A stretch of DNA of 64,000 nt. Source: a virus (lineage: Duplodnaviria; Caudoviricetes). How positions within the stretch are numbered: position 1 is the first letter of the stretch; the number at the start of each line of letters is the position of its first letter. The notes beneath the pieces were generated by a model that saw only the letters and a program-made list of their open reading frames with translations, did not search any database and was not told where the DNA came from. Location: the IMG/VR virus record IMGVR_UViG_3300027833_000011. One strand, given 5' to 3'. This document shows, one piece after another, positions 36,166 through 57,215 of this stretch. The position numbers and the translations under genes are program-made.

Positions 36166-37668
36166 ATGAAGTTATTTTTTACTTTTTACAGTAAAGAAAG
36201 TATTCCTAAATTACACCATTTTTTCAATCACTATAGGAACTTAGGTGTTACCAATTTTTACGCTATATATCACACATATGGAGAACATAGTAAAGATGTT
36301 TTAGATTATGTAATGAAAAATGCTATGGTTGTTAAGATATGGGATGGAGTATTTAATGAGCATAATAAAATTAAACATATAAATGATGCGAGATTAAAAT
36401 TCTCAAGTTATGGAGAATGGTCGTTTACTGTTGATTGTGATGAATTTATCGATATAAGTCTAAACGACTTAAACAAAGTGATTAATAGTGATGCTAACTA
36501 TGTTAAGTTTAGTTTAATCGATAGGGTATCTAAACCATCACTTAAAGAAGTCACTATTGAAGAGGATATAGAAATGACGTTTCCACATTATTCTTTTATT
36601 ACGTATCGTTTATTAGAGGGGACGACATCTAAAGTGCCTCTATCTGTTCGTGAAGTTATTATTGGTTTAGGTTATCATGATGTCATTGGAGAACAAGAGC
36701 AAGTGGTTAAGTTAATAAAACACCCTTTAAATGGGTATGTTAATCACTTTAAATGGGATAGTGATGTTATCTATACTATACACGATAGGGTTACTAATAG
36801 GTTAATAGATGACGGAAGTGCTGATGATTATATAGAAGAATGTGAAGTTGCGTTGTCTTTAGATTATGATAATGTGATTACCTACGACAAACCTTTAGGT
36901 ATGAAGTTATTGTTTATAGTTTGGTCTCTTCAGGATTATAATATGTTAAAACAATTCTTCATACATTATAGAACTTTAGGGGTTACCAAATTTTATTGTA
37001 TTTTTCACACTTACGGTATGGAAGATAATTTTATTTATGATTTCGTTAAAGAAAACGCTGAGATTGTACACCATTGGGATGAGAAATATACTACGGAGTG
37101 GGAATGTAAACTCAAAAATAAATATAAAAGGGAAATATGTGATGATGAGAACGAATGGGTATGGTGTGTTGACGCTGACGAATTTGTTGATGTCTCACAA
37201 GATTTTGTGAGGGAAGTAATACGTAGTGACTCAAATTACGTTAATGGGTGGATGGTAGATAGGTTTTCTGAAGAGGGGTTAATAGTTCCATTGGATGATA
37301 ATATGTTTAAACAGTTCCCTATTAGAACTTACTATACTCGTTTTAAATTAAACGGTTCTGGTTCTAAAATCCCATTAACTCGTTCTTATGTTCTTATTGG
37401 TGTGGGACATCATGTGGTACTAAACGAATTGTACGATTATCAATTAAATGACGATAGAGTCTTAATTCCTTATAATGGTGATGAGGAAACTTGGATTGAA
37501 GTTGCTCATATCAAATGGCATTATCAATTGTTGGAGGAAATATATAATAAATTCACTAAAACAATGAATTTATGTCAATATTCGGCAAGAGAAATGGGAG
37601 TATTTGTCTTAGATTATTGTTATAAGAAAAAATCAATAACTGAGATTATTAAAGATGTGAGGATATGA
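36166..37668 (+). CDS. Tandem-duplicated GT2-like (Glyco_tranf_2_4-type) protein
   Basis: Two homologous halves: HYRNLGV...TVDCDEF...HFKW and HYRTLGV...CVDADEF...HIKW. Confidence 0.75.
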   Translation: MKLFFTFYSKESIPKLHHFFNHYRNLGVTNFYAIYHTYGEHSKDVLDYVMKNAMVVKIWDGVFNEHNKIKHINDARLKFSSYGEWSFTVDCDEFIDISLNDLNKVINSDANYVKFSLIDRVSKPSLKEVTIEEDIEMTFPHYSFITYRLLEGTTSKVPLSVREVIIGLGYHDVIGEQEQVVKLIKHPLNGYVNHFKWDSDVIYTIHDRVTNRLIDDGSADDYIEECEVALSLDYDNVITYDKPLGMKLLFIVWSLQDYNMLKQFFIHYRTLGVTKFYCIFHTYGMEDNFIYDFVKENAEIVHHWDEKYTTEWECKLKNKYKREICDDENEWVWCVDADEFVDVSQDFVREVIRSDSNYVNGWMVDRFSEEGLIVPLDDNMFKQFPIRTYYTRFKLNGSGSKIPLTRSYVLIGVGHHVVLNELYDYQLNDDRVLIPYNGDEETWIEVAHIKWHYQLLEEIYNKFTKTMNLCQYSAREMGVFVLDYCYKKKSITEIIKDVRI

Positions 37669-39116
37669 TAGGTATACATTCGGTCTTTAGTAATGAGAAT
37701 AGAGGGTTTATTTATAATGTAAACACAGAAATTAGTACTGTTGAGTTATATACGTGGGTTTATTCAATATTAACGTGGAAAAGAGATGGTCATCCATTAT
37801 ATCTCTATTGTGATGATAAAATTAATGACTTTGTTATCAAATACGGTTTTTCTCATTTATATGATGAGGTAAGAGTTAGAAATTATAACGACGACATACA
37901 CGAATGTTTTTGGTCGTATAATAAAATACGTGTGATTGAAGAGTTTGGGGAACCAGTATGTTTGTTCGATGTGGACACTTTTTTTAGGAATACCGAATTT
38001 ACTAAGTTACAATATGATATGATAACATATCATTATGAGTTATGGGATTTGGAGTTAAAAAATAAAATGTTTAACAGTAAAGATAGTTTAAAAAACTTAA
38101 GTTTCTACCAAACGGTAGACGATAGTGTTGAGGTTGTTAATGGTAGTTTACTAATTTTTAATAGTTATGATTTAAAAACAGAATTTTTACGTAACGCTAA
38201 AGAGGTTGTTGATACTATAAAAACAATCGATTATGAAAGTCAATTTGAGTATGATTCGTATACCATTTTTATGGAACAGGTTAATTTGGGTTATTTAAAT
38301 AAGAAATATCACTGTGGTAAAGTTTCTAAAAGAAATGAGTGGGGAGATTATAGATTTAACAGGAACGAACCATTTGTTCATTTAGGTCATAATAAAGAAC
38401 GATTGGAGTATGGTAATCCACAAACAAAACAAAGATATGTTCAGGTAATTAAGGAGAAGATTATTGAGTTAGGATATCCTGAGTTTGAAAAGTTATTTAC
38501 CTTAACGACGTTCGAAGGTGATAAGACCCAAAACTCTTTAACACCTCAAAGGGTTAAACCAACCGCTAGAAATATGGGTGATAAGATAAGTTCTGAATTG
38601 TTCACTAAATGGTATGGTGATAATGCGGAGTTATTGAAAGATAGTCGATTTGACATTGCGATATGGGGTTCTATATTGGGTAATGACATTGACTTGATTA
38701 TATCAACGTCTAAAGGGGTTAATGTAAGTGATAAAGACTTAGAAGATTTTATGTTATCAATACATAGGTCAGGTGATTATCTCAGTATTACTGTTGAGGT
38801 ATTATATACCAATAATATTGACTATTTTAGAGAATTTAGAATGGAAAATTCTCAAAAAGTAAAAGAAGACATTCTTATTGGGTTTGTTTCTGAAGCGGAT
38901 TATGAGTCAAACGGTGAGTTAAGAACGGTGGGTAACTTAAAGTTTTATGAAGGACCATTTAACGATGCTTACTATAAATCAACAAATAAACATGATGAAG
39001 TTCTATTTATAGATTCAGTAAAAGATATAAAAAACAACGATGGTTATACACATTTTTCATCTGAGGTTTATAATACCATATATGAAAGGTTTGGAATTTT
39101 CAGTATGTTAGGCTGA
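37665..39116 (+). CDS. GT-A-like (DUF6734-like) domain fused to a nucleotidyltransferase-like domain
   Basis: N-terminal LYCD...FWSYNK...CLFDVD; C-terminal WGSILGNDIDLII. Confidence 0.55.
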   Translation: MIGIHSVFSNENRGFIYNVNTEISTVELYTWVYSILTWKRDGHPLYLYCDDKINDFVIKYGFSHLYDEVRVRNYNDDIHECFWSYNKIRVIEEFGEPVCLFDVDTFFRNTEFTKLQYDMITYHYELWDLELKNKMFNSKDSLKNLSFYQTVDDSVEVVNGSLLIFNSYDLKTEFLRNAKEVVDTIKTIDYESQFEYDSYTIFMEQVNLGYLNKKYHCGKVSKRNEWGDYRFNRNEPFVHLGHNKERLEYGNPQTKQRYVQVIKEKIIELGYPEFEKLFTLTTFEGDKTQNSLTPQRVKPTARNMGDKISSELFTKWYGDNAELLKDSRFDIAIWGSILGNDIDLIISTSKGVNVSDKDLEDFMLSIHRSGDYLSITVEVLYTNNIDYFREFRMENSQKVKEDILIGFVSEADYESNGELRTVGNLKFYEGPFNDAYYKSTNKHDEVLFIDSVKDIKNNDGYTHFSSEVYNTIYERFGIFSMLG

Positions 39117-39154
39117 AAAAATATTAACTGAATATTTATAATAAAAGAATATAG

Positions 39155-41266
39155 ATGGCATATCTAAAGAAAAATATAGAAACATTAATTGATATTAAAA
39201 TTACAGACAAAGGTAGGGAGTTAATTTCTACAGGTAAGTTCTGTAACATTGAGTATTTTCAGGTTGGTGATTCTGAATTTGACTATAAAAACGAAACTAT
39301 CTTTAAGAGAGATGGGAAGAAAGACACGCAGATTGTGTTTAGAGCTAAAGATAAGGATTCGGATGTTAAATATCCAATACCTGTCGGTAGTGAAAGTCCT
39401 GACGACCCATTAAGTTGTAATACTTACGGTAGGGTTTACCCAAATCATCAAGAAGAGGTTGTAAGTAAGAAAGTAGAGTTTTTAGGTGTGACACAAAATC
39501 AAAATATAAAGACACCGTTAGGTATATGTGTGCCATTGATGAACTTTGATGGGACAGATACTTTGGTGACTAACAAGTTAATATCTTGTGAGTATATTTT
39601 AATCAAATTTCCCCAAGACCCGTCAAACGTTTTAGATACTGATGGTCCTTGTTTATGGTATAAAGTCGTTTCGTTTATTGATGAGAATACGATTCAATTA
39701 GACAGACCTTTACCTAACTATTCTTTTGTTACTGACCTTAGTAAAGAGGCGACATTATTTGAATACGCAAAAAGAGAGACTACGGAATATTTAGATTTCA
39801 ATGTTGCGTGGACTGAGGAGTTTGCTGGTTTTGATGTTAACTTACCAAGAACATTTGCTGAAGGGTCTAAATATCTATCGGCTAAAGAGATGTTCGGTTA
39901 TACGTCATACGAGCATGGAGACAATTATTATTCATGTAACCCTGAACCAACAACGACCACTACAACGACAATATGTCCTCCTGAGTTTTTATCATTGGAC
40001 CTAACAAGAGAACCTACAGTACAATTATTTAGTAATGTTGAAGTAAGTGGAGAGAGTTGGGATTATTGTTCTTCTTATGTAGATTCTTACGGTAAAGAGG
40101 TTTATGTGTATCCTGACGAACAAAAATTTATTGGTATAATACATTATACTAAATGGGAAGACTATTATGGAACGGGTGAATGGTGGAAAGAATTTGACGG
40201 TGAATTCGAATTAAACCTACCAACGTTAATGTACCATAGAGATGAAGATAATAAAATGGGACATAAGTTTAAAATGGGTTCAATCAATAACTACGTTAAG
40301 TCGTTAGTGAATGATGAAATGGATTCTGAAGGTGAAGTTTATTTCGATTTAATTGATACAACAAGTAATCAAAATATTGTTGGTAAGATATTCCCACACA
40401 AACAAGCGATTGTTATCGACGACGAAGAGATATTAATGGCATTATCAATGAAGTCTAATAGAAATTGGACATTACCGGCACCAAAGGCGGTTAGAATATC
40501 GTCAGATGCTGATTGTATCGATTCTCCTGATGATGTTATGTTACCTAAAGACTTAACAAAACAAGTTTTTATTTCTTATATGTTCTACAATAAGAATAAC
40601 AAAATGTATTCGGCACCATCGGCTCAATACGTTAGGGTTGACCCTAGTGGTACTGATGATTTTGATGTTGCGGTTTCATTTAAAGATGGTTTTAATTTCT
40701 TAAGAGATAAGATTATCACGGACAACAATCCAGGGTTTCAAGCGACTAATTTCTATATTTTAGTACAACAGGTTGATACTAAAGATAAACCATTACCTGA
40801 CGAATGGAGGTATATTGAGTATACTGATAGTTTAAATGGGTTTACTGGTGGTAACATATTAAGTTCTCACTTAACCGGAACTAAATTCATAGTCAACTCT
40901 GAACTATATAATAACGCAAATGCGTTCAACTACAGACAGTTAATTGGTTATCCTAATCAGAATGAAAGAAATAATCTAATCTTTGGTGATGAGTTTATGT
41001 TAATGGGGGATGTTACCCTAAACAAACAACACAGTGTTTATGTTATGAACTACATAGTAGACCTACCAAGTAATAAGTTTATAAGGTCACAAAACCCGAC
41101 ATGGGACCAAGACACTGACAGTAAAAAACAGGACTTATATATTACCGAAGTTGCTTTATACAACGACGATAAGGATATGGTTGCAATTGGTAAGGTGTCA
41201 AAACCACACAAAAGAAAGGTTGACCCTGCTAGTAATCAGGTTATATCGGTTAAATTAGATTTTTAA
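39155..41266 (+). CDS. Virion structural protein (baseplate/tail-associated) with a short Thr stalk
   Basis: N-terminal KITDKGRE...FQVGDSE and C-terminal YITEVALYND..DMVAIGK motifs typical of large myovirus virion proteins; contains PTTTTTTTICP. Confidence 0.65.
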   Translation: MAYLKKNIETLIDIKITDKGRELISTGKFCNIEYFQVGDSEFDYKNETIFKRDGKKDTQIVFRAKDKDSDVKYPIPVGSESPDDPLSCNTYGRVYPNHQEEVVSKKVEFLGVTQNQNIKTPLGICVPLMNFDGTDTLVTNKLISCEYILIKFPQDPSNVLDTDGPCLWYKVVSFIDENTIQLDRPLPNYSFVTDLSKEATLFEYAKRETTEYLDFNVAWTEEFAGFDVNLPRTFAEGSKYLSAKEMFGYTSYEHGDNYYSCNPEPTTTTTTTICPPEFLSLDLTREPTVQLFSNVEVSGESWDYCSSYVDSYGKEVYVYPDEQKFIGIIHYTKWEDYYGTGEWWKEFDGEFELNLPTLMYHRDEDNKMGHKFKMGSINNYVKSLVNDEMDSEGEVYFDLIDTTSNQNIVGKIFPHKQAIVIDDEEILMALSMKSNRNWTLPAPKAVRISSDADCIDSPDDVMLPKDLTKQVFISYMFYNKNNKMYSAPSAQYVRVDPSGTDDFDVAVSFKDGFNFLRDKIITDNNPGFQATNFYILVQQVDTKDKPLPDEWRYIEYTDSLNGFTGGNILSSHLTGTKFIVNSELYNNANAFNYRQLIGYPNQNERNNLIFGDEFMLMGDVTLNKQHSVYVMNYIVDLPSNKFIRSQNPTWDQDTDSKKQDLYITEVALYNDDKDMVAIGKVSKPHKRKVDPASNQVISVKLDF

Positions 41267-41321
41267 GACTTTATTTAGTTTTAAATATTGTTAAGTTTAT
41301 AACTCAAAAGATATAATACAT

Positions 41322-41945
41322 ATGAGACCTAGTCAGAAAAAGAGCCCAAAATTATTGGGGTTAGACATATCAACAAAGACAATTGGATTTGCTTTGTTCG
41401 AAAAATCAGATATGAGTTTATTAGAACTCACCCACTATTCACCAATAATTAAACCAAGACCTGAAGACCTTATTGAAGAATTAATCAAAAAGGCGGATGC
41501 GTTTTCTAAGAAACTAACAACGTATCAAGATATTGGTATTGAGTTGGTGGTGATAGAACAACCACTACTAAATTCTAATAATATATATACGGTTGGGACT
41601 TTAATGAAATTTAACGCATTGATTTCTAAAATAGTATATGATATATTGGGTGTAGTACCTAAATACATATCAACTTACGACTCAAGAAAATACGCATACC
41701 CTAACTTATACGCAGAAAACGTAAGGGGTAAAAAAGTGTTGTTTGGGGGTTATCCAAAAGGATGTGATAAGAAACACATTATTTGGGAGCAAGTTGCCGA
41801 AAAGGAACCACAAATTACTTGGTTATATACGAGAAACAACACTCTGAAGAAAGAGAATTTTGATATGACCGATGCGTATACGTGTGTGTTGGGTTATGTT
41901 AACGTTCTTAAAGAAAAGAAAGAAAAGGAAGAAAAAGGGGAATAG
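41322..41945 (+). CDS. RuvC-like Holliday junction resolvase
   Basis: LGLDIST..IG, VIEQP and DMTDA acidic tetrad. Confidence 0.75.
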   Translation: MRPSQKKSPKLLGLDISTKTIGFALFEKSDMSLLELTHYSPIIKPRPEDLIEELIKKADAFSKKLTTYQDIGIELVVIEQPLLNSNNIYTVGTLMKFNALISKIVYDILGVVPKYISTYDSRKYAYPNLYAENVRGKKVLFGGYPKGCDKKHIIWEQVAEKEPQITWLYTRNNTLKKENFDMTDAYTCVLGYVNVLKEKKEKEEKGE

Positions 41946-41946
41946 A

Positions 41947-41978
41947 TTTGACTAGTCAAGTATAATTCTTTATTTTTA
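41947..41978 (+). promoter_or_regulatory. Bacteroidota-type promoter variant with an overlapping 12-bp palindrome
   Basis: TTTG-N20-TATTTTTA; TTGACTAGTCAA at 41948..41959. Confidence 0.55.
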
Positions 41979-41982
41979 CCCT

Positions 41983-42924
41983 ATGAGTGAAAACTTAGAT
42001 ACAGATTTATTATTATCGTTAGTTGAGGATGTTTTAGGTGAATACCGTAAACACAATGACGGACATGGTCAAATATCATTTGACTGTCCTACCTGTTCTT
42101 ATGATATAAAAGGATTAGATGATGGTGACGGAAAAGGTAACTTGGAAGTTAACTATCATCGTAATGTATTTAAGTGTTGGGCATGTTCAGAAACACACGG
42201 GACACACGGTTCAATATATAAGTTAGTCAATATGTGGGGAACCCCATACCAAAAGAAACAACTTTCTTTGGTCATGCCAGATACCTTTATGGATAGAGGT
42301 GAGATTAAGTATGAGGTTGTTAAATTACCAAAAGAATACGTTAGATTTAAAGATGCTACTGTTGGGTTAAAGATGACTCATCATTACAAATACGCATATA
42401 ACTATTTGAAAGGTCGTGGTATTAGTGACGAGGTTATTGATAAACACCATATGGGTTTTTGTTATGACGGACCATATTCGGGTAGGATTATCGTTCCTTC
42501 ATATACTCAGGACATGGAGTTAAACTTTTTTGTGTCAAGGTTATATGGTAATGGTTTCTTAAAATATAAGAACCCCAAAGCGTCTAAAGATACGTTAATA
42601 TTTAACGAGTATTTAATCGATTGGAATAAAGACATATATATTTGTGAAGGTGTCTTTGATAGTATATTCTTACCTAATTCAATACCTTTGTTGGGTAAGT
42701 TTATTAACGATTATCTATGGGGTCGACTTTACGATGACGCAAAAGGTGATATAATTATATGTTTAGACGGTGATGCTTGGGCAGATGCCGAAAAATTATA
42801 TTATAAATTAAATGGTGGTAGACTTTACGGAAGGGTTAAAGTTGTCAAACTACCTGAAGATAAAGACATCGGTGACCTAAGAGGTGTGTTACCTGAAGGT
42901 TCGGTGTTAGAATTAGAAAGATAA
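41983..42924 (+). CDS. dnaG: DNA primase (Zn finger + TOPRIM)
   Basis: CPTC...CWAC Zn finger, GRIIVP, KYKNP, ICEGVFD and CLDGD motifs. Confidence 0.9.
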   Translation: MSENLDTDLLLSLVEDVLGEYRKHNDGHGQISFDCPTCSYDIKGLDDGDGKGNLEVNYHRNVFKCWACSETHGTHGSIYKLVNMWGTPYQKKQLSLVMPDTFMDRGEIKYEVVKLPKEYVRFKDATVGLKMTHHYKYAYNYLKGRGISDEVIDKHHMGFCYDGPYSGRIIVPSYTQDMELNFFVSRLYGNGFLKYKNPKASKDTLIFNEYLIDWNKDIYICEGVFDSIFLPNSIPLLGKFINDYLWGRLYDDAKGDIIICLDGDAWADAEKLYYKLNGGRLYGRVKVVKLPEDKDIGDLRGVLPEGSVLELER

Positions 42925-42934
42925 AAAAGAAGAT

Positions 42935-43624
42935 ATGATACATCCAGAAATTTACAGTTATTTTGATGATAAAGAGGCTTGGAAAAGAAAGTATATGAGA
43001 CCTGAGGCTTTATCAATGGAGTGGGATATGATGTTAGAAGAGGTTGGACCTGATGTCTACCAATTTCCACTATTTAAAGAAGAGTTATGTGCTAAATTAA
43101 TTGAAGAAGCTGAAGCGACACAATCGTGGACACATAAAAGACACGCGTTTTATCCCACTACGGATATGTTGGTCGAGACCTTTGGGTTTGAAGAGATATA
43201 CCATGAGATTATGGATGACTATATTATGGGAGCGGCAAGACACATTTACCAATTAAATGGTCAGAATTGGGACCAAGGAAATGTATATTCCGAGAATTTT
43301 ATGATACGTTATTCACCTGAAGAACAGGGACATTTATCATTACATTATGACCAATCGTCAATATCGTGTAACGTAGCATTAAATAACGACTTTGAGGGTG
43401 GTGGTACGTATTTCTCAAGACATAAGGTATTGGCGAAAGCTAAAGGAACAGGTTATGTTACATTTCATCCTGGACAGATAACACACAAACACGGAGGGAT
43501 GCCGACAAACAAAGGAACCCGATATATTATTGTTTCATTTATGAATGACGATAAAAATAGAGAAAATCACATTAATGATTTAGAAAGATTTGCTAACGAA
43601 AAAGGATTCTATAATGATAAATAA
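42935..43624 (+). CDS. 2OG-Fe(II) dioxygenase, PLOD (procollagen lysyl hydroxylase) catalytic-domain-like
   Basis: PDVYQFPL, PTTD, NFMIRY.PEEQ..L.LHYD, NVALN..FEGGG, HPG.ITHKHGG.PT..GTRYI.VSF; HxD, distal H and R are intact. Confidence 0.8.
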   Translation: MIHPEIYSYFDDKEAWKRKYMRPEALSMEWDMMLEEVGPDVYQFPLFKEELCAKLIEEAEATQSWTHKRHAFYPTTDMLVETFGFEEIYHEIMDDYIMGAARHIYQLNGQNWDQGNVYSENFMIRYSPEEQGHLSLHYDQSSISCNVALNNDFEGGGTYFSRHKVLAKAKGTGYVTFHPGQITHKHGGMPTNKGTRYIIVSFMNDDKNRENHINDLERFANEKGFYNDK

Positions 43625-44393
43625 GATAGTACATTTCTCAGATTTACATTTAAGATTATATCAATATCATGCTCAATATAAAGAAATATTGACTGATATG
43701 TTACAACAATTTAAAGACGAGGAACCTGACCGTATAGTTTTTACTGGTGATTTAGTACATTCAAAAAATCAGATTACACCTGAACTTATTGATGTGACAA
43801 GGTGGGTGTTAGATGAATGTTCTAAAATTGCGAGGACGGTATTAATAATTGGTAATCATGATTTCTTAGAAAACAATATGGATAGGATGGATTCAATCAG
43901 TCCTATTTTAGATTCTATGAATAATGATAATATTGATTATTATATGGATAAGGGGTTGTATGAAGATGAGAATGTGGTGTGGGTTGTGTATTCGTTAAGG
44001 ACACATAACGAACCACCTGTTATTGATAGAGTTGAGGGTAAGAAACACATTGGATTATTTCACGGACCAGTACATGGGTTAACGACTGACGTTGGTTATG
44101 AATTTTCAGAAGGTTATGACCCGTTTAAATTTAAAGGTTGTGATTTGGTATTGTGTGGTGATATACATAAAAGACAGATATTTGATATTCCTGAAGGTAA
44201 GGCGTATATGGTCGGTTCGACAATACAACAAAACTTTGGAGAGTCAGTTTCAAAACATGGGTATGGTACCTACTATATAGATAAAGATGAATATTCGTTT
44301 ACGGACTTAGATAATAAGTCACCTTTCTTACAATTTAAGATTACGGATATTGAGGACATTGAGAATGGGAAAGAAGTTTTGCTTAACGCTTGA
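43614..44393 (+). CDS. sbcD: SbcD/Mre11/gp47-like metallophosphoesterase nuclease
   Basis: SDLH, GDLVH, GNHD, FHG and GDIH motifs; ATG start preferred over the tracked TTG at 43590. Confidence 0.88.
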   Translation: MINKIVHFSDLHLRLYQYHAQYKEILTDMLQQFKDEEPDRIVFTGDLVHSKNQITPELIDVTRWVLDECSKIARTVLIIGNHDFLENNMDRMDSISPILDSMNNDNIDYYMDKGLYEDENVVWVVYSLRTHNEPPVIDRVEGKKHIGLFHGPVHGLTTDVGYEFSEGYDPFKFKGCDLVLCGDIHKRQIFDIPEGKAYMVGSTIQQNFGESVSKHGYGTYYIDKDEYSFTDLDNKSPFLQFKITDIEDIENGKEVLLNA

Positions 44394-45252
44394 TAAAAAC
44401 GTTTTAGATTTTTGTAAATTAAATGACATTGAAGATGTTAGGGAATTTGCTATAAAATGTTTTGAAAAGGGTCTGACTATTGAGAAATATGGTGAGACAC
44501 CTTTACTTATGCCCAAAGAAATCAAGACGGTGATTAAAGAAATTGAAAAAGAAGTAATCAAAGAAGTTGAAGTACCTGTTGAGGTCATTAAAGAGGTTAA
44601 AGTAGAGGTTCCCGTTGAGAAAATAGTGGAAAAAATTGTTGAAAAACCTATTGAAGTGATAAAGGAAGTCATTAAAGAGGTACCAGTCGACAAAATAGTG
44701 GAAGTGGAGAAAGAGGTCGTTGTCTATAAAGAAAGACCCGTAGAAATCATAAAAGAGGTTGAGAAGATAGTTGAAAAAGAAGTCCCAATAGAGAAAATTA
44801 AGGAAATCGAAGTAATTAAAGAGGTCTATATAACGGATGACAAGCAGGTTGAGGAACTTGGTGATAAAATAACACAGTTAGAGAAACAAAATAAGGATTT
44901 GTCCCAAAAAGTGATTAAATTAGAGACAACTCCCCCTAAAATTGTGGAAAAAGAAATACCGATTGAGAAAATTAAGATAGTTGATAGGGAAGTCCCTGTT
45001 GAAATCATCAAAGAGGTTGAGAAAATAGTAGAAAAACCTATTGAAGTGATAAAGGAAGTCATTAAAGAGGTAAAAGTAGAGGTTCCTGTTGAAAAAATCG
45101 TCAAGATTAAGGATAACTCTGAAATAGAAAAATTGACTAAACATAATAAAGAATTAATTGAGTCATTAGCTAAATATGACGAAATGTTTAGTAAATTTGA
45201 ACAGAAAATAAGCGTTAAAAAATCAAAAAGAGATAATTTATATGATGAGTAG
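44365..45252 (+). CDS. V/E/K/I-rich repeat protein (alveolin/articulin-like EKIVEVP repeats)
   Basis: Repeated EVPVEKIVEK / EVIKEV units; 42-nt exact duplication at 44641 and 45031; start uncertain (44350 or 44365). Confidence 0.7.
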   Translation: MGKKFCLTLDKNVLDFCKLNDIEDVREFAIKCFEKGLTIEKYGETPLLMPKEIKTVIKEIEKEVIKEVEVPVEVIKEVKVEVPVEKIVEKIVEKPIEVIKEVIKEVPVDKIVEVEKEVVVYKERPVEIIKEVEKIVEKEVPIEKIKEIEVIKEVYITDDKQVEELGDKITQLEKQNKDLSQKVIKLETTPPKIVEKEIPIEKIKIVDREVPVEIIKEVEKIVEKPIEVIKEVIKEVKVEVPVEKIVKIKDNSEIEKLTKHNKELIESLAKYDEMFSKFEQKISVKKSKRDNLYDE

Positions 45253-45562
45253 TTTAATATTGTTTGCGTTTGTGGCATATGGTATGACCACAATAATAGT
45301 TTACGGTTCTATATTAGAAGGAATTCGTAATTTCATACATAAAAAGGGGGAAAATAATTCGTTTATGAAGTTTTTCTCAGACTTAGTAGGTTGTGTGTTA
45401 TGTACATCGACATGGGTAGGATTCTTCTTATCAATAACGATGTTTTCACCAACTAATACTATTTATGGTATATCCCTACCGATGACAATATTCTTTGACG
45501 GAATGTTTTCAGCGGGAATAGTATGGGGAATAAACACACTTATAGAGTGGTTTGAAGATTAA
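45242..45562 (+). CDS. Small membrane protein, DUF1360-like
   Basis: Hydrophobic helices and LVGCVLCTSTWVG (CxxC..W). Confidence 0.55.
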   Translation: MMSSLILFAFVAYGMTTIIVYGSILEGIRNFIHKKGENNSFMKFFSDLVGCVLCTSTWVGFFLSITMFSPTNTIYGISLPMTIFFDGMFSAGIVWGINTLIEWFED

Positions 45563-45566
45563 TATT

Positions 45567-46178
45567 ATGATTAAATTTTTAAAGAAATTATTTAGTAAAG
45601 ATGTTTTATTTGACTTATCAAAGATTGATGGGTTTGTTAAAAACTATGAATTAGACTTAGATAAGTTTGAAAAGGACTGGATGACAGGTGATGGTGTTTC
45701 TGATTACGTTAAAGGTGTTAATCACGAATGGTTATCTCCGGAATCGGTAAGTTTAGAAAATGAAGAAATACACATAACGTCTATACATAGACCGATTAAT
45801 GTTGGGGGTGAAATATTTGACTATAAAACAGGTGTGGTAACAACAACACGTTTTTTTAGTTATGGTTATTATGAGTTCTCAGTAGATTTACCAAACAAAA
45901 GTTCACATACGCCAACTGTTGAGATATTCAACCCTGAAAGTAACATTGAATTAGTTACGGGTAATTATGGGGTTAAAAAAATTGGTTTATTATATTTAAA
46001 CAAGAAAATAGAACTTTACCACGACAATATTTTAGTTAAGAAGATTAAGAACGGGAATATAGGTTCTGAGGTGAAGTTAAGAATTAAGCACGGATTAAAT
46101 CCTTCGGTTGAAGGTACCCACATTAAAGGTAACGATACTTTAAGGTTGATTAGTTTAGACTATTACAGAAAAAAATGA
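45567..46178 (+). CDS. Degenerate GH16/ConA-like beta-jelly-roll protein
   Basis: ESVSLENEEIHIT and FSYGYYEF resemble GH16, but no complete ExDxxE; ATG 45567 preferred. Confidence 0.45.
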   Translation: MIKFLKKLFSKDVLFDLSKIDGFVKNYELDLDKFEKDWMTGDGVSDYVKGVNHEWLSPESVSLENEEIHITSIHRPINVGGEIFDYKTGVVTTTRFFSYGYYEFSVDLPNKSSHTPTVEIFNPESNIELVTGNYGVKKIGLLYLNKKIELYHDNILVKKIKNGNIGSEVKLRIKHGLNPSVEGTHIKGNDTLRLISLDYYRKK

Positions 46179-47104
46179 TACTAAAATTAGGTTCTAAAGG
46201 TGAGAGTGTTAAAGAAATACAAGAGTTTCTCGGTATTACAATGGATGGTGATTTCGGTCCAAAAACTGAGAGAGCAGTTAAAGAATGGCAAAAGACAAAA
46301 GGACTATTTGTTGATGGTATTGTTGGTCCTTCCACTTGGAACGCTATGGGTATTGCTACTACTGATATATCGGAAATTGCGTTAACAGATGGAATAGTTA
46401 TCAATAAGACTTATTTACCCGACGGTGAATATTATAAAGGGCCTGTGGATAAAGAATACTTATTTTTACACCACACGGCAGGTGGAAATAACCCATATAG
46501 AACTATATTACATTGGGGTAGAGACAGTAGAGGTAGAATTGCAACTGAGTTTGTTATTGGAGGTAAGTCAATTGATGGTGACGACCAATACGATGGTGAG
46601 ATAGTTCAATCATTTTCTGAAGGGGGTTATTCATGGCATTTGGGTAAGAATGGCTCACAACATATGCACGTACACTCAGTAGGTATTGAGGTTTGTAATT
46701 ATGGTTATCTAACTAAAGGTGGGTACAAAAAGAAAATTAATGGTAGACGTGTTTGGGTGGATAGAGACCCTGATTCTTATTACGCATACACAGGTAGTAA
46801 AATACGTGAAGAGGATATTGTGTTTACTGAGGAATTTAGAGGTTATACTGCGTGGCACGCATACACAGACAAGCAAATTGAGTCTTTAAAGGAGTTAATA
46901 CTTTACATCAAAGAAAGAGATGGTATTGACATACAAAAGGGATTAATTAGTGAATATAAAAAAAATGGTTTGGATTCATTTGAATGGAATTCAGATGCAT
47001 ATTATGGTAGAATTAAGGGTATGTGGACACATACAAACACCAAAAAAGGTAAGTCAGATATGTCACCCCAACCCAAACTGATTGAGATGTTACTCAGTCT
47101 ATAA
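46175..47104 (+). CDS. Endolysin: PG-binding domain + N-acetylmuramoyl-L-alanine amidase (Amidase_2)
   Basis: LKLGSKG..V...Q...DG.FGPKT...DGIVGP.TW; LHHTAG, GIEVC, WTH and KSD. Confidence 0.9.
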   Translation: MILKLGSKGESVKEIQEFLGITMDGDFGPKTERAVKEWQKTKGLFVDGIVGPSTWNAMGIATTDISEIALTDGIVINKTYLPDGEYYKGPVDKEYLFLHHTAGGNNPYRTILHWGRDSRGRIATEFVIGGKSIDGDDQYDGEIVQSFSEGGYSWHLGKNGSQHMHVHSVGIEVCNYGYLTKGGYKKKINGRRVWVDRDPDSYYAYTGSKIREEDIVFTEEFRGYTAWHAYTDKQIESLKELILYIKERDGIDIQKGLISEYKKNGLDSFEWNSDAYYGRIKGMWTHTNTKKGKSDMSPQPKLIEMLLSL

Positions 47105-47122
47105 AAAATACAAATTTTAATG

Positions 47123-47148
47123 AATCCTGTCAGAAATGACGGGATTTC
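47123..47148 (+). terminator. Hairpin after the endolysin
   Basis: AATCCTGTCA-GAAA-TGACGGGATT with one G-U pair; weak T tail. Confidence 0.6.
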
Positions 47149-47160
47149 AAGTTTAATATA

Positions 47161-47592
47161 ATGAATATGGAAAGTTATAAAATTAGAAAGGCGGTCTTCG
47201 AAGATTTAGAAGATATTTGTCGATTATTAAGCGAATCGTTTATTGAAACCAAAGAACCGATTAGGTATTGGTGGAGAATAATGGAGAACACATCGATACA
47301 TACATATGTGGTTGAGAGTGAAGGATATATTGTAGGTACGGCTACATTACACGTATTAGAAAAACTAATCGGTGGAGGTTCATATGTTGGGCAAATTGAG
47401 GATGTTTGTATATCAAAATCACACAAAGGTGAAGGGTTAGGACAAATGTTAGTCAATCAATTAATCGAATCCTCAAAAGAATTACGTTGTTATAAGGTTA
47501 TTTTAAATTGTGATGAAAAATTAGTACCATTTTATGAGAAAAATGGGTTTTACCAGAAAGAAATACAAATGCGTTTGGATAATAAAAAATAA
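47161..47592 (+). CDS. GNAT acetyltransferase, glucosamine-6-phosphate N-acetyltransferase (GNA1)-like
   Basis: GQIEDV...GEGLG...CYKVILNCDEKLVPFYEKNGF parallels recalled yeast GNA1 GHIED...GQGLG...CYKIILDCDEKNVKFYEKCGF. Confidence 0.8.
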   Translation: MNMESYKIRKAVFEDLEDICRLLSESFIETKEPIRYWWRIMENTSIHTYVVESEGYIVGTATLHVLEKLIGGGSYVGQIEDVCISKSHKGEGLGQMLVNQLIESSKELRCYKVILNCDEKLVPFYEKNGFYQKEIQMRLDNKK

Positions 47593-47605
47593 AGTCATAC
47601 TTTTG
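47574..47605 (+). promoter_or_regulatory. Host (Bacteroidota sigmaA)-type early promoter
   Basis: TTTG-N20-TACTTTTG, perfect consensus. Confidence 0.75.
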
Positions 47606-47629
47606 TGTTCTAATTAAAAAGATACTTAT

Positions 47630-47866
47630 ATGACGACAGTAACATTTAGCATTTGGGACGGTGGGAAACTAATCACCGAATATCCTTTAGAGATTCAAGA
47701 AGAAAACATAGAGAAAACACATATTGACGCATCGTCAGTATGGGATGAGTATACTGTATTGGCAGAATGGGGTGACGGGAAAACTGCTACAATCATGCCG
47801 TTCACATATTCCAACTCACTTAATGGGGAGGTGTCTAATAATCAACCAATTGAATTCCTACTATAA
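47630..47866 (+). CDS. Hypothetical protein
   Basis: ORF directly downstream of a consensus promoter. Confidence 0.65.
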   Translation: MTTVTFSIWDGGKLITEYPLEIQEENIEKTHIDASSVWDEYTVLAEWGDGKTATIMPFTYSNSLNGEVSNNQPIEFLL

Positions 47867-47868
47867 TT

Positions 47869-48117
47869 ATGTTTAGAAAAGATGATTTATATACGTTATT
47901 TCTCGTGGTGATTATAATATCAGTGTTGGGAATTTCTCTCGGTTTTATATCGTTATTAGTGTTTTTTGTGTCTAATCTATCGTTAATGGGGTCTTTAGTC
48001 GTTGCGACATTTACACACGTAATTTTGTTTTATATGTTATACCGTAAAATAGTAGGGGAGTTAAAAGAAATGAATGTCGATGGTTTAGATTTCGATGATA
48101 TCGAAGACTTAGGTTAA
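47869..48117 (+). CDS. Small hypothetical membrane protein
   Basis: Two long hydrophobic segments and an acidic tail. Confidence 0.65.
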   Translation: MFRKDDLYTLFLVVIIISVLGISLGFISLLVFFVSNLSLMGSLVVATFTHVILFYMLYRKIVGELKEMNVDGLDFDDIEDLG

Positions 48118-49978: not shown

Positions 49979-50707
49979 ATGGAAGGATATGTATACATAG
50001 CAAGAATCATTGACCACGGAGGTAAATTCGTAAATGGGTACCATAAGATTGGTCTCTCAAAACAGTATAAGGTACGTGAGACACAGTTAAACTCAACGCA
50101 CTTACCTTTTGATGTTATGATGGTAAGAGTCTTTGAAACGGAAGATATGAACAAATTAGAGGGTATTCTTCACGTTTGTTTCGAGGACTATAGAGTTATT
50201 AAAGAGTATGATGACCGTAGGAATATTACAACAGAGTGGTTTGATGTTTCGGATATTGACACCTTTCATTCACGATTGGATAAGATGGTAAGTTATCTAT
50301 CTGTTAAGGAATTGGATTTAGGTCTTAGTGTTGATAACGACGAAACCCTAACTGATGAAGAAAAGGTTGATGTTAAAAACAAAATTGGTCGGGCAAAGTC
50401 TACGAATCTAAAGGTTACCATTGGTGATAGAGTTATTACTAACAAAACCGCAAAAGAAACGTATGTGTCGGTTATCAACGAAATCACTAACGGTGTTAAC
50501 AGGTCAGTCATTGAATACAATTTCTCATCTTTCTTTAAAAACGATAAGGACGAGTTTAGAGACTCACTTAGTGACCATAATAAGGTTATGATGGACTGTG
50601 GGATGTTTATGTCCACATGGGGTTCTAATGTAACTAAAATCAAACGAATTAAAATGATTTGTGAGAAGTTAGGGGTGGAAAATGTGGAGTGTGAAATTAT
50701 CGATTAA
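49979..50707 (+). CDS. GIY-YIG-superfamily (T5orf172-like) nuclease-domain protein
   Basis: GYVYI...KIGLS...R..QL...E..LH..F...R...EWF. Confidence 0.75.
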   Translation: MEGYVYIARIIDHGGKFVNGYHKIGLSKQYKVRETQLNSTHLPFDVMMVRVFETEDMNKLEGILHVCFEDYRVIKEYDDRRNITTEWFDVSDIDTFHSRLDKMVSYLSVKELDLGLSVDNDETLTDEEKVDVKNKIGRAKSTNLKVTIGDRVITNKTAKETYVSVINEITNGVNRSVIEYNFSSFFKNDKDEFRDSLSDHNKVMMDCGMFMSTWGSNVTKIKRIKMICEKLGVENVECEIID

Positions 50708-53123: not shown

Positions 53124-53864
53124 ATGAAGATTGATAGAGTTTATGTCATCACAATGGATATGAGTGATGAATACAAAGATGAGTTATTTGAGAGAGTGTT
53201 AAATTTACCACTACCTTCAAATACACCTGTTGAGTTTAAACAAGGGTTTCCAGGTAAGGATTTATTGGAAAGACCTGAAGACTTTCCTGAGTATCGTATA
53301 TACCCACATTGGAACCTTAACAACCCAGAGGGTTGGTGGTGGTGGCAAAGACCAGCGTTATCAGGTGAAGCGGGTGGTATGATATCACACACAATGTGTT
53401 GGGAAGATGCGTATGAGAAGGGGTATGAAAATATTATGATTATTGAAGATGACTTTACGGTCGAAGAACCTATTGATTGGGGTATCTTTAAAGAACTTGA
53501 TGGTTATGAATGGGATTTATGTTTAATGGCTCACAATTCATTACACGAACATTTTTCAGATATTATGAAACCTTTAAATATTGGTAGAGAACATTTTATC
53601 AGACCAACGTTCTTTTATAATACTCATACTTATATACTTTCTTCGGGAGGTATTAAGAAATTAGTTGAGGACCATTTAGATGTGTTAAAACAAAATATTA
53701 TAGTATCTGACGAATTTTTATCTGCAGTTACTTCATCACATCCAAGACCTGATTTAAGAGAGATGTACATAACTAATATGTCAGCGGTTGCTACAAAAGT
53801 TAATTATACAGGACAAACAAGAAGTGAAGGTTTGGGTAATTCTTTAACCGAGACTGAAAAGTAA
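53124..53864 (+). CDS. GT25 glycosyltransferase, COLGALT (procollagen galactosyltransferase)-type
   Basis: RP...GE.G..ISH, IIEDD, WDL, DEFL....HP and terminal SLTET correspond to recalled COLGALT1 motifs. Confidence 0.75.
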   Translation: MKIDRVYVITMDMSDEYKDELFERVLNLPLPSNTPVEFKQGFPGKDLLERPEDFPEYRIYPHWNLNNPEGWWWWQRPALSGEAGGMISHTMCWEDAYEKGYENIMIIEDDFTVEEPIDWGIFKELDGYEWDLCLMAHNSLHEHFSDIMKPLNIGREHFIRPTFFYNTHTYILSSGGIKKLVEDHLDVLKQNIIVSDEFLSAVTSSHPRPDLREMYITNMSAVATKVNYTGQTRSEGLGNSLTETEK

Positions 53865-54469: not shown

Positions 54470-55144
54470 ATGGATTATAGAGATATTAACGACTTTGGTC
54501 GTTTTGCTAAAGATAAGGGGATTTCAGGAATGAATCTTCACTACTTCAACCAAAAAGTAGAAAATTCAATGACACCTTACATTTTAGAGGAGAGAAGTCT
54601 TAACGTAACACAAATGGATGTGTTTTCAAGATTAATGATGGACAGAATCTTATGGGTTTCGGGACCTGTAAATGACCAAATGGCGTCTATTGTACAAGCA
54701 CAATTACTATTCTTAGATAACCTTGACGATAGAGATATTTCAATGTATATCGATTCACCAGGTGGTTCTGTTAAAGCGGGACTTTCAATGGTTGATGTTA
54801 TGGACTATGTGAATAGTGATATTGCTACCGTTAATGCAGGAATGGCGGCATCGATGGGTTCTGTACTGTTAGGTGCAGGAACCAAAGGTAAAAGGTCTTC
54901 ATTAAGATTCTCACAAACAATGTTACACCAATCATCAGGTGGTGCGGTAGGTAACATTCAAGATGCTGAGATTTCTATGATTGAATGGAGAAAAGTAAAC
55001 CAACAGTTATTTGAATTGTTAGGGGGTTACTGTGAAAAAGACGCAGAACAAGTTAAGAAAGATGCGACTCGTGATTTCTGGTTAAGTGCTGACGAAGCGA
55101 AAGACTACGGAATTATTGATGAAGTTATTCGTAAACGAAGATAA
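54470..55144 (+). CDS. clpP: ATP-dependent Clp protease proteolytic subunit
   Basis: DVFSRLMMDRI, IDSPGG, AASMG (catalytic Ser), MLHQ (His) and RDFWLSA.EA..YG.ID. Confidence 0.95.
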   Translation: MDYRDINDFGRFAKDKGISGMNLHYFNQKVENSMTPYILEERSLNVTQMDVFSRLMMDRILWVSGPVNDQMASIVQAQLLFLDNLDDRDISMYIDSPGGSVKAGLSMVDVMDYVNSDIATVNAGMAASMGSVLLGAGTKGKRSSLRFSQTMLHQSSGGAVGNIQDAEISMIEWRKVNQQLFELLGGYCEKDAEQVKKDATRDFWLSADEAKDYGIIDEVIRKRR

Positions 55145-56423: not shown

Positions 56424-57215
56424 ATGGCTAAATACACATCACACATCAACCAAGACGAGATATCACATTATCTTAAAGAGTTAAGAAAGATTCCTGTTAT
56501 CACACCTGCTAGAGAAAAGGAACTGTCTAAAATTATGTTAAATCCGAATGTAACCCAAAGAGAGACTGATAAGGTACATAAAGAATTGTTGGAGGGTAAC
56601 TTAAGATTTGTTATAACAGTGGCTAAAGACTACCAAGGTCAAGGTATTGATTTATCTGACTTGATATCTGAAGGTAATTTAGGTCTTATGAAGGCGATTA
56701 AGTCATTTGATTGGAGTAGAGGTTTAAGATTTATATCATACGCGGTATGGTGGGTTAAACAATCAATCTTCCAATGTCTAAATGAAAATTCAAGGACTAT
56801 TAGGTTACCTGTTAATGTTGTACAAGAAGTACAAAAGGCAAAAAAACAAGATAAACGTGTGGAGGATTTAAATCCACGTCTTAGTAATTTAGCACACGCA
56901 ATCACCTTCGATGACCATATTAATGAGGAGGGTGACACTATGTTCGATTTATTAGAAGATGTTGAAGCGGTAATGCCAGATTCAGCTTTGGACGGTAAAG
57001 ATATAGTTAAAAGACAACTCCTTACTATTATGGATGTCTTAGACGAACGTGAAAATGCTATAGTTAAAGATTACTTCGGAATCACTGGTACTCCAAGGAC
57101 TTTAGAAGACATTGGTAATGATTTCGGACTTACAAAAGAAAGGGTCAGACAAATTAAAGAAAAGGCGTTACGTAAGTTACGTAATGAGTCAGACGCAATA
57201 TTTGACTACTTATAA
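56424..57215 (+). CDS. rpoD: Phage-encoded sigma-70 factor, Bacteroidota primary-sigma (RpoD)-like
   Basis: NLRFVITVAK.YQGQG..L.DLISEGN.GL, FISYAVWW, RTIRLP.N and TLE.IG..FGLTKERVRQI; short, lacking region 1.1. Confidence 0.92.
   Translation: MAKYTSHINQDEISHYLKELRKIPVITPAREKELSKIMLNPNVTQRETDKVHKELLEGNLRFVITVAKDYQGQGIDLSDLISEGNLGLMKAIKSFDWSRGLRFISYAVWWVKQSIFQCLNENSRTIRLPVNVVQEVQKAKKQDKRVEDLNPRLSNLAHAITFDDHINEEGDTMFDLLEDVEAVMPDSALDGKDIVKRQLLTIMDVLDERENAIVKDYFGITGTPRTLEDIGNDFGLTKERVRQIKEKALRKLRNESDAIFDYL

Follow-up and report, generated by a model that had tools for sequence, protein, structure and literature searches.

A stand-alone PLOD-type lysyl hydroxylase domain in a tailed bacteriophage and its predicted action on collagen-like fibres

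A complete stand-alone lysyl hydroxylase (LH) domain of the PLOD type was confirmed, by sequence and predicted fold, in the open reading frame 42935-43624 (plus strand; 229 aa, ATG start, TAA stop) of the window, i.e., the whole 64,000-nucleotide stretch of viral DNA analysed here. In our opinion, the product of this ORF is likely to be a catalytically active lysyl hydroxylase of the PLOD/L230 type that depends on Fe(II) and 2-oxoglutarate; it is predicted to hydroxylate lysines of the phage fibres that would then be glycosylated. The source is a large uncultured marine bacteriophage, and a tailed one, as genes of DnaB, RNR, baseplate wedge, primase, SbcCD and endolysin were found in the window. 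Lysine 5-hydroxylation with subsequent addition of galactose and glucose is considered a hallmark of animal collagen. To our knowledge, mimivirus is the sole viral case characterised for hydroxylation and glycosylation of collagen lysines, and a full-text literature search did not turn up any account of a lysyl hydroxylase from phages. All four components of such a pathway, namely LH, a GT25 glycosyltransferase, a PLOD-type glycosyltransferase (GT_PLOD) and a collagen-like fibre, are present in this phage lineage, and they are linked by gene fusions and gene neighbourhoods.

The sequence-only reading of this DNA had claimed a likeness to PLOD beyond the generic 2-oxoglutarate (2OG) core, with intact Fe and 2OG ligands, and both statements stood. 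All the listed motifs were found, including WKRKY (residues 16-20), PDVYQFPL (39-46), PTTD (74-77) and RYSPEEQ (125-131), and residues 178-202 read HPGQITHKHGGMPTNKGTRYIIVSF. The ORF was compared with all PDB sequences by phmmer: its residues 2-204 matched residues 503-714 of human LH3 with E 3.7e-34, and the other match was mimivirus L230 (E 2.1e-27); with E up to 1, this search gave no 2OG oxygenase beyond LH3 and L230. Two Pfam families, PF25238 and PF03171, were each over their cut-offs, the former being an N-terminal extension common to PLOD and OGFOD2. Judged from these comparisons, the similarity is far above chance and specific to lysyl hydroxylases.

The Fe triad is H137/D139/H186, with Y126 and R196 as ligands of 2OG; all five residues are invariant in a 50-sequence alignment. 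They align, respectively, with H825, D827, H877, Y814 and R887 of L230, a double-stranded β-helix with the 2-His-1-carboxylate Fe(II) triad H825/D827/H877, where mutation of these residues kills activity (PMC5802723). The LH gene is under purifying selection (dN/dS ~0.04 versus a 97%-identical relative). Many phage 2OG oxygenases act on nucleobases, nucleotides or small molecules, and the same might be supposed for this ORF, if it is not a catalytically idle remnant. Its place among DNA-metabolism genes agrees with this supposition, as do its only PHROGs assignments, to a generic family named '2OG-Fe(II) oxygenase' and, less strongly, to one labelled 'DNA endonuclease'. Nevertheless, we consider that an ORF with all catalytic residues intact and under such selection is very improbably anything other than a protein hydroxylase: nucleic-acid and small-molecule oxygenases are absent from the PDB sequence search, and in the fold search such enzymes stand ~15 orders of magnitude below LH domains.

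In this fold search, the AF2 model of the ORF (pLDDT 95.3) was compared with known structures by Foldseek. LH3 was matched with TM 0.80 and rmsd 2.0 Å (E ~1e-22 for LH domains) and L230 with TM-by-target 0.89 and rmsd 1.8-2.0 Å, followed by OGFOD2 (E ~1e-12, TM 0.67, 22% identity) and by P4H, PHD and P3H (E ~1e-7, TM ~0.5, 11-18% identity). The ranking in AFDB Swiss-Prot was PLOD1/2/3 (E 5e-23), OGFOD2 (2e-12) and P4H (2e-7), and no entry of AlkB, TET or JBP was present among the top 50 Foldseek matches. The best similarity is thus to LH domains over the whole domain, the N-terminal helices included. A comparison with PLOD1-3, L230 and other 2OG enzymes had been proposed in the sequence-only reading, and it placed the ORF with PLOD1-3 and L230, not with prolyl or nucleobase hydroxylases. 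OGFOD2, PBCV-1 vCPH (PDB 5c5t), PHD2, P4H and P3H share the double-stranded β-helix and the HxD...H...R chemistry with the phage LH, and OGFOD2 also carries the PF25238 extension; membership of the ORF in OGFOD2 or prolyl hydroxylases was rejected because of the much weaker matches.

Human LH3/PLOD3 and PLOD1/2 (PDB 6fxk and others; O60568, Q02809, O00469) are the best-scoring family, with 33-34% identity and TM 0.80-0.81. PLODs are three-domain proteins (GT, accessory and LH domains) of the ER lumen with signal peptides, whereas the phage LH lacks a signal peptide as well as the GT and accessory domains, and its site of action must be the cytoplasm of the bacterium. The full-length PLOD architecture in one chain is absent, since the 229-aa ORF is bounded by the stop of a primase gene and the start of an SbcD-like gene. 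As the glycosyltransferase is encoded by a separate gene, the phage protein is a member of the LH-domain family and not a PLOD-architecture protein.

L230 is a tail-to-tail homodimer, in which Leu L873 locks into the aromatic pocket Y798/Y801/Y831 of the other subunit, and its dimer cleft serves long collagen chains (PMC5802723). The corresponding residues of the phage LH are I182 (L873), Y105 (Y798), W112 (Y801) and I143 (Y831), i.e., two of the three aromatic pocket positions are kept and the third is aliphatic. A homodimer model of the LH scored 0.44 versus 0.01 for the best control, which is to be read as likeness and not as binding, because dimers of L230 and LH3 have already been solved, and the model may be just a memory of them. 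Of the proteins solved as one-chain pairs, 20 of 30 attained the 0.44 mark, as against 1 of 23 for those solved as single chains; both figures are only rough because our own alignment was used. The modelled interface (residues 105-107, 142-143 and 179-183) is the same as in the L230 mode, with at least 94% contact agreement between runs and a partner pLDDT of at least 89.

The claim that the LH domain stands alone was borne out by its neighbourhood. A DNA primase gene (41983-42924, plus strand; phrog_47, E 2.8e-33) ends before the LH ORF with a 10-nt spacer, and the gene of an SbcD-like metallophosphoesterase (43614-44393, plus strand; phrog_100, E 5.6e-26, Pfam Metallophos) begins with ATG at 43614, overlapping the LH end by 11 nt. 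The LH gene is therefore located in a replication/recombination block, and the primase-LH-SbcD order is kept in relatives L001-L006, which are only 45-82% identical. Co-transcription of the LH gene with primase and SbcD is probable. A metatranscriptome contig joins primase and LH, contigs from RNA libraries run from LH into the SbcD-like gene, and contigs of four seawater RNA-Seq libraries cover the LH ORF and bridge into both neighbours, DNA carry-over being possible in this case. The depth of metatranscriptome contigs and their uncovered parts carry no information on the level of expression. Promoter and terminator scans of 39000-47500 gave background level only, and no DNA similarity to cultured phages was found for window positions 40001-48000.

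Two genes downstream of LH, a K/E/V-rich protein is encoded (44350-45252; 18.7% K, 1.3% Gly, one Lys-Gly pair), for which profile searches gave no family match and where no DNA tandem repeat was found. The sequence-only reading had named lysines of KEP/KDV repeats as candidates for the substrate, and the low content of Gly together with the single Lys-Gly pair rules this protein out as a likely one. Its second candidate, fibres encoded elsewhere, gained support. A strain 98-99% identical to the window phage has a collagen-like fibre of 938 aa (contig L021, 18367-21183; PF01391, E 1.5e-76, and a Peptidase_S74 chaperone) with Lys at 83 of 233 Y positions and at 1 X position, the sequence coming from this strain and not from the window's own assembly. 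Such a position of Lys is exactly the known substrate motif of PLODs, X-Lys-Gly. In window-equivalent coordinates, the fibre gene is ~50 kb downstream of LH; with LH at this distance and in the replication block, there is no local synteny link between them in this phage. A six-frame scan of the window for Gly-X-Y runs found none with Lys, in agreement with the earlier statement that no Lys-containing collagen is encoded there. The runs that were detected are Gly/Tyr-rich and situated inside a 2108-aa protein (26462-26578), with one more short run at 17643. A weak PF01391 match in relative G002, which did not reach the cut-off (E 2e-4), falls in the same Gly/Tyr region.

More information about the substrate was obtained from other viruses. 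LH relatives are encoded by 174 IMG/VR viral contigs, and in 47 of the best 80 LH loci of these contigs LH directly follows a collagen ORF on the same strand, with a median gap of 643 bp. Within the same 80 loci, the downstream flanks served as an internal control for this proximity: a collagen ORF was downstream of LH in none of the 61 loci having at least 5 kb there. In 53 such upstream collagen ORFs, Lys occurs 1081 times at Y and 3 times at X, so that the placement of Lys in them is strictly at the Y position. A strong preference for particular positions is seen for other residues of these collagens too. When Lys at Y precedes Gly-Asp or Gly-Glu, triple helices gain stability from ion pairs, and therefore the Y-position bias is explicable without any LH. 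Whole viral records with LH contain collagen genes in 5 cases out of 5, and a 297-kb, 99%-complete viral genome has LH, GT25, GT_PLOD and collagens together.

It could be suggested that the enzyme is an active lysyl hydroxylase with a non-collagen target, such as a different component of the virion, the neighbouring product of 44350-45252, a protein for replication or recombination encoded in the same operon, or a host protein that is altered as the phage takes over the cell. The position of LH between primase and SbcD, conserved in such distant relatives, its remoteness from the fibre genes and the Lys-rich repeat protein nearby are in line with such a target. We regard this as unlikely in view of the poor fit of that repeat protein, the frequent location of LH directly after a collagen gene in the viral loci, the presence of Gly-X-Lys collagens in every whole LH-bearing record checked and the LH-specific dimer cleft, which seems to be retained according to the model.

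The strongest partner of LH within the window, absent from the sequence-only reading, is a COLGALT1-like glycosyltransferase GT25 (53124-53864, plus strand; 246 aa; Pfam PF01755, E 3.8e-9, 37.1 bits versus a cut-off of 24). In the PDB it is most similar to human procollagen galactosyltransferase 1 (E 7e-7), while a bacterial GT25 gave E 0.4; the E-D-D motif at its residues 108-110 aligns with that of COLGALT1, and with P0045, a GT25-LH fusion, it shares 33% identity over the GT25 half (E 4e-31). On the basis of these similarities, it is proposed to be the hydroxylysine galactosyltransferase acting with LH. Human COLGALT1 (GLT25D1; PDB 9evj, and 8zgc with LH3) is matched best in its catalytic domain, but the 246-aa phage protein corresponds to the second GT domain of COLGALT1 only, and its donor and acceptor are predicted. 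The genome downstream of the window was reached via contigs sharing exact proteins. One of them, L010, which agrees with the window at 99.99% identity across 11,884 bp, encodes a GT_PLOD of 468 aa at 17954-19360 (PF25342, E 1.5e-64), ~6 kb past the window end.

Among 1.84 billion proteins, the closest homologues of the phage LH, 48-51% identical, are C-terminal LH domains of fusion proteins of the types GT4-GT25-LH, GT25-LH and GT25-GT_PLOD-LH. Repeated fusion of GT25 and GT_PLOD to this LH clade is sensible only if the product of hydroxylation is the sugar acceptor. In the tree, with the LH domains of fusions from phages CRP-6 and S-PRM1 (24-28% identical to the window LH) as the outgroup, the LH ORF belongs to a separate and very diverse microbial clade of stand-alone and GT25-fused forms, apart from the metazoan enzymes. 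This position, the identity of only 31-37% to characterised LHs and the fact that GT25 enzymes include lipooligosaccharide galactosyltransferases too, so that the acceptor of the window GT25 is an assumption, leave room for another chemistry on the fibre: hydroxylation of a different Lys carbon or of a different residue, or hydroxylysine left unglycosylated for cross-linking or helix stability. Such chemistry seems quite unlikely to us, because of the recurrent fusions and because the window GT25 finds its best PDB match in a collagen hydroxylysine galactosyltransferase.

According to the preferred reading, that of a PLOD/L230-type pathway on the fibres, LH would act as a tail-to-tail homodimer in the cytoplasm of the infected bacterium. 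As the gene is packed between primase and SbcD and probably co-transcribed with them, the enzyme would already be available by the time the late collagen-like fibre proteins are synthesised. It may hydroxylate the Y-position Lys of Gly-X-Lys triplets before folding of the triple helix; the separately encoded GT25 would then add galactose to hydroxylysine, and the separately encoded PLOD-type GT would add glucose, giving animal-type Glc-Gal-Hyl on the phage fibres. We infer what the substrate is, in which order the reactions run, which sugars are added and when the genes are expressed.

A close characterised counterpart is L230 of Acanthamoeba polyphaga mimivirus, a collagen lysyl hydroxylase and glucosyltransferase (PMC5802723). 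Both viral LH domains (PDB 6ax6/6ax7/9nev for L230) have ~200 aa with ~31% identity, their Fe triads, 2OG Tyr/Arg and positions of a putative hydrophobic dimer lock correspond to each other, and each virus encodes its own collagen-like candidate substrates. However, L230 is a two-domain GT+LH protein of a giant virus of amoebae, whereas LH of the tailed bacteriophage has its own gene, and GT25 and GT_PLOD are encoded apart from it, at distances of 10 and 27 kb. The phage enzyme also differs in Ile at the place of one pocket tyrosine and in an extra clade-specific C-terminal helix (residues 207-222). Mimivirus R699 is a galactosyl-hydroxylysine glucosyltransferase (PMC9546862, PMC12279948). COLGALT1 and R699 correspond to steps two and three of the pathway, and the same phage has the PF25342 GT_PLOD gene.

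The phage and microbial radiation of LH is far more diverse than its metazoan branch, so the pathway may predate animals or reflect an exchange between viruses and early eukaryotes. With slightly less than even confidence, we suggest that Glc-Gal-hydroxylysine on tail fibres is common and ancient in bacteriophages, that it is made by modular, fused or unfused, cytoplasmic LH, GT25 and GT_PLOD, and that this glycan tunes stability or host recognition. If the proposed pathway is real, it would bring a new class of post-translational modification of virions into phage biology, one that would bear on adsorption, on the range of hosts and on how well virions resist proteases or grazers, and it would broaden the view of how the PLOD and COLGALT families evolved. 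Small stand-alone LH, galactosyltransferase and glucosyltransferase active in the cytoplasm would also become available for obtaining hydroxylated and glycosylated recombinant collagen in bacteria, which was called an unsolved problem (PMC9546862).

The idea is directly testable, since cultured carriers exist. Roseobacter phage CRP-6 (gp58, 589 aa, MK613348.1) and Synechococcus virus S-PRM1 (614 aa, MH629685.1) have GT25+GT_PLOD+LH fusions, both annotated as 'hypothetical protein', and S-CAM9 gives a similar match. The set of domains is the same as in the window phage, but in CRP-6 and S-PRM1 the three domains are united in a single polypeptide, whose gene adjoins that of a Gly-X-Lys collagen-like fibre. 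The CRP-6 fibre contains Lys at Y in 26 of 99 triplets, and in S-PRM1 K was found in 23 of 79 triplets, scored over all runs, including three short minus-strand Gly-Pro-Val runs.

An open reading frame of 229 amino acids, found at 42935-43624 on the + strand exactly where the sequence-only reading had placed a stand-alone lysyl hydroxylase (LH) domain of the PLOD type, contains every one of the PLOD-type motifs listed in that reading. When every PDB sequence was searched with phmmer, residues 2-204 of the protein aligned with 503-714 of human LH3 (E 3.7e-34); the only other target was the mimivirus L230 LH domain (E 2.1e-27), and up to E 1 no further 2OG oxygenase was matched. Two Pfam families, PF25238 (PLOD/OGFOD2 N-terminal extension) and PF03171 (catalytic core), exceeded their curated cut-offs, and PHROGs gave the generic label '2OG-Fe(II) oxygenase' and nothing more specific. 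The best protein match in GenBank phages (50,697 records) is only 24-28% identical, and no DNA similarity to cultured phages was found when 40001-48000 was compared.

An AlphaFold2 model built from a 50-sequence alignment has a mean pLDDT of 95.3. In Foldseek comparisons of this model with the PDB, the first fifteen matches are LH3 and L230 chains (E 1e-22 to 6e-18, TM 0.74-0.81, rmsd 1.8-2.5 Å; L230 TM by target 0.89); the next matches, weaker by eleven orders of magnitude, are PolD, the PBCV-1 prolyl hydroxylase and PHD2 (E ~1e-7, TM ~0.5). Among Swiss-Prot models, PLOD1/2/3 rank first (E 5e-23 to 1e-21, 28-36% identity), then OGFOD2 (E 2e-12), and P4H, PKHD and P3H at 2e-7 and weaker. Because LH domains outrank all others in both rankings, the protein groups with PLOD LH domains and not with prolyl or nucleobase hydroxylases. 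Alignment to L230, in which the roles of the compared residues were established by mutagenesis (PMC5802723), gives the Fe triad H137, D139 and H186 (L230 H825, D827, H877) and the 2OG ligands Y126 and R196 (Y814, R887), all five of them unchanged across all 50 diverse family members; I182 takes the dimer-lock position (L873), and Y105, W112 and I143 the aromatic-pocket positions (Y798, Y801, Y831).

A homodimer was predicted with a score of 0.44 against 0.01 for the best control, a level reached by 20 of 30 solved one-chain pairs and 1 of 23 solved single chains, these counts being rough, with an own alignment used. Contact agreement between the runs was at least 94%, and partner pLDDT at least 89. 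The predicted interface (105-107, 142-143, 179-183) would be that of the L230 tail-to-tail mode; since LH dimers have already been solved, the model shows likeness, not binding. Residues 205-229 form a C-terminal extension with a predicted helix at 207-222, seen only in the seven-member clade of this protein, and in the dimer model this helix adds helix-helix contacts at 213-225.

The genes of the window, including DnaB helicase, class I RNR, baseplate wedge, RuvC-like resolvase, primase, SbcC/SbcD and endolysin, are those of a tailed phage. The LH gene starts 10 nt past the primase stop, and its own stop is overlapped by the ATG of an SbcD-like gene; bounded in this manner, it is truly stand-alone. 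The primase-LH-SbcD order is retained in relatives whose LH is 45-82% identical, and therefore this odd location is old and stable. In three related contigs with an LH 80% identical to that of the window (L001:9116-9973, also L002 and L003), an extra 285-aa gene without a Pfam match, absent from the window, lies between primase and LH.

Against a 97%-identical relative, dN/dS is 0.04, a sign of strong purifying selection on the gene. In four seawater RNA-Seq libraries, contigs 95-99% identical to the ORF cover it and span both the primase/LH and LH/SbcD junctions; as DNA carry-over is possible in such libraries, they are a weak sign of transcription. DNA near-identical to 42000-44400 is present in seawater and other marine metagenomes, where fourteen runs from ten studies (one maybe the source of this DNA) contain half or more of the words sampled, and thus the phage is widespread in the sea.

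A quick tree was computed by maximum likelihood from 176 LH domains and rooted provisionally on the divergent domains of CRP-6 and S-PRM1 rather than on OGFOD2 or P4H. In it, the window protein and six other stand-alone proteins of 228-229 aa make up a clade with full support. This clade is nested in a larger one (123 rows), in which stand-alone proteins occur together with fusions to GT25 or to GT4-GT25. The other clade has 51 rows and includes two named animal PLODs, from a nematode and a brachiopod, together with proteins bearing the PLOD-type glycosyltransferase domain (GT_PLOD, PF25342); the split between the two clades has moderate support (SH-aLRT 81-88). This separation argues against a recent capture from an animal, and, judging by the tree, the gene belongs to a large environmental radiation. 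More distant relatives (L004:9246-9857, also L005 and L006) have a tandem pair of LH genes in the primase-SbcD interval, and two LH ORFs each were found in L063, L094 and L108. The upstream tandem copy, of 203 aa, shares 34% identity with the LH of the window and is placed on a very long branch. HxD and Arg are kept in this copy, but Tyr replaces the distal His ligand of the Fe, and the Tyr that binds 2OG is missing; it could be a pseudoenzyme or act as partner in a heterodimer.

Ten kilobases downstream of LH, immediately after SbcC, a gene at 53124-53864 (+) encodes a 246-aa GT25 glycosyltransferase (PF01755, 37.1 bits, cut-off 24). In the PDB it is matched best by human procollagen galactosyltransferase 1, in its catalytic domain (E 7e-7), and a bacterial GT25 reaches E 0.4. 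HMMER, run exhaustively against 1.84 billion representative proteins, yielded 2465 relatives of the LH, the closest of which (48-51% identical) are C-terminal domains of long proteins with the Pfam architectures GT4-GT25-LH, GT25-LH, GT25-GT_PLOD-LH and GT_PLOD...LH. Compared with the GT25 half of one GT25-LH fusion, the window GT25 shows 33% identity (E 4e-31). The window LH and GT25 thus correspond to two halves of one fused gene in other viruses, which is independent evidence for one pathway. Contig L010, which shares 11,884 bp with the window at 99.99% identity, runs on beyond the window end and carries, ~6.1 kb further, a 468-aa PLOD GT domain gene (PF25342, E 1.5e-64). A Pfam GT2 match was also noted at 36166-37668.

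A profile scan with one peptide pattern only gave 174 IMG/VR viral contigs with an LH relative. Of the best 80 loci, 47 have on the same strand an upstream collagen ORF, defined by an unbroken run of 8 or more Gly-X-Y triplets and separated from the LH-bearing ORF by a median of 643 bp; none has a collagen ORF downstream, and a GT25 domain is also present in 43. With the downstream flanks (605 kb, against 280 kb upstream) as an internal control, loci having at least 5 kb of flank show collagen upstream in 18 of 25 versus downstream in 0 of 61. Lysine occurs 1081 times at Y and 3 times at X in 53 distinct collagen ORFs (7156 triplets); Y-position lysine also stabilises triple helices via Lys-Gly-Asp/Glu ion pairs, and residues besides lysine are likewise strongly position-biased in these ORFs. 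All five whole viral records with LH contain collagen genes, three of them without collagen within 10 kb of LH, and GT_PLOD is found in three. The lineage is probably jumbo-sized, as the 99%-complete genome of a relative has 297 kb; LH, GT25, GT_PLOD and collagen are all present there. Roseobacter phage CRP-6 gp58 (589 aa) and a 614-aa protein of Synechococcus virus S-PRM1, both unannotated GT25+GT_PLOD+LH proteins, are each encoded beside a Gly-X-Lys collagen-like fibre; in these cultured phages LH is fused into one protein, whereas in the window it is a separate gene. On contig L013, a GT4-GT25-LH fusion gene is preceded by three collagen genes (616, 1045 and 1055 aa) and flanked by two oxygenase-like genes (L013:9438-10001 and L013:12460-13053), for DUF6445 and a 197-aa protein of the generic 2OG-Fe(II) oxygenase family PF13640, which hints at modification of a second residue as well in some viruses.

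Gly-X-Lys repeats were looked for beyond the window by a downstream walk with exact-protein look-ups, and were found. A scaffold (L015, L018, L021) 98-99% identical to the window and L016 over ~20 kb encodes several fibrous proteins and then a 938-aa protein matching PF01391 collagen (E 1.5e-76), marked as a tail fibre by its C-terminal Peptidase_S74 chaperone. Among its 233 triplets, lysine occupies 83 Y positions and 1 X position, and a second, similar collagen-like gene follows. Taken with L010, this scaffold gives the lineage LH, GT25, GT_PLOD and Gly-X-Lys fibres as separate genes over ~50 kb. A 2108-aa protein (22538-28864) with Gly-Gly-Tyr/Gly-Gln-Tyr runs at 26462-26578 was rejected as a collagen; in a relative, these runs produce a collagen match that is weak and below threshold. 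A 300-aa protein at 44350-45252 (18.7% Lys) has imperfect K/E/V/I/P-rich repeats (EVIKEV, EKIVEKP); it matched no family, and its DNA showed no tandem repeat.

In our opinion, the following scheme can be proposed as to substrate, sugars, order of steps and timing of expression. An Fe(II)/2OG-dependent LH homodimer would be produced from the tightly packed replication/recombination gene block and would hydroxylate Y-position lysines on nascent, unfolded fibre chains in the host cytoplasm; mimiviral LH has been recorded as active in the E. coli cytoplasm (PMC9546862). Galactose would next be transferred by GT25 and then glucose by the PLOD-type GT, and the fibre would trimerise last, aided by its own S74 chaperone. 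The modification could serve fibre stability, protease resistance or receptor binding. The LH family and the collagen-glycosylation pathway are already known from animals and mimivirus, and no description of either the enzyme or the pathway in bacteriophages was found in the literature. Particular to this phage are the fully unfused arrangement and the location of LH in a replication operon, remote from its presumed substrate.

Other genes of the phage include those for a ClpP protease (54470-55144), a sigma-70-type factor (r2/r4; 56424-57215), a GNAT acetyltransferase (47161-47592), a T5orf172/MUG113 domain protein (49979-50707) and a small Hc1 histone-like protein (L010:11445-11618), with DnaJ, DNA methyltransferase, thioredoxin, glutaredoxin and MetK-like genes farther downstream.
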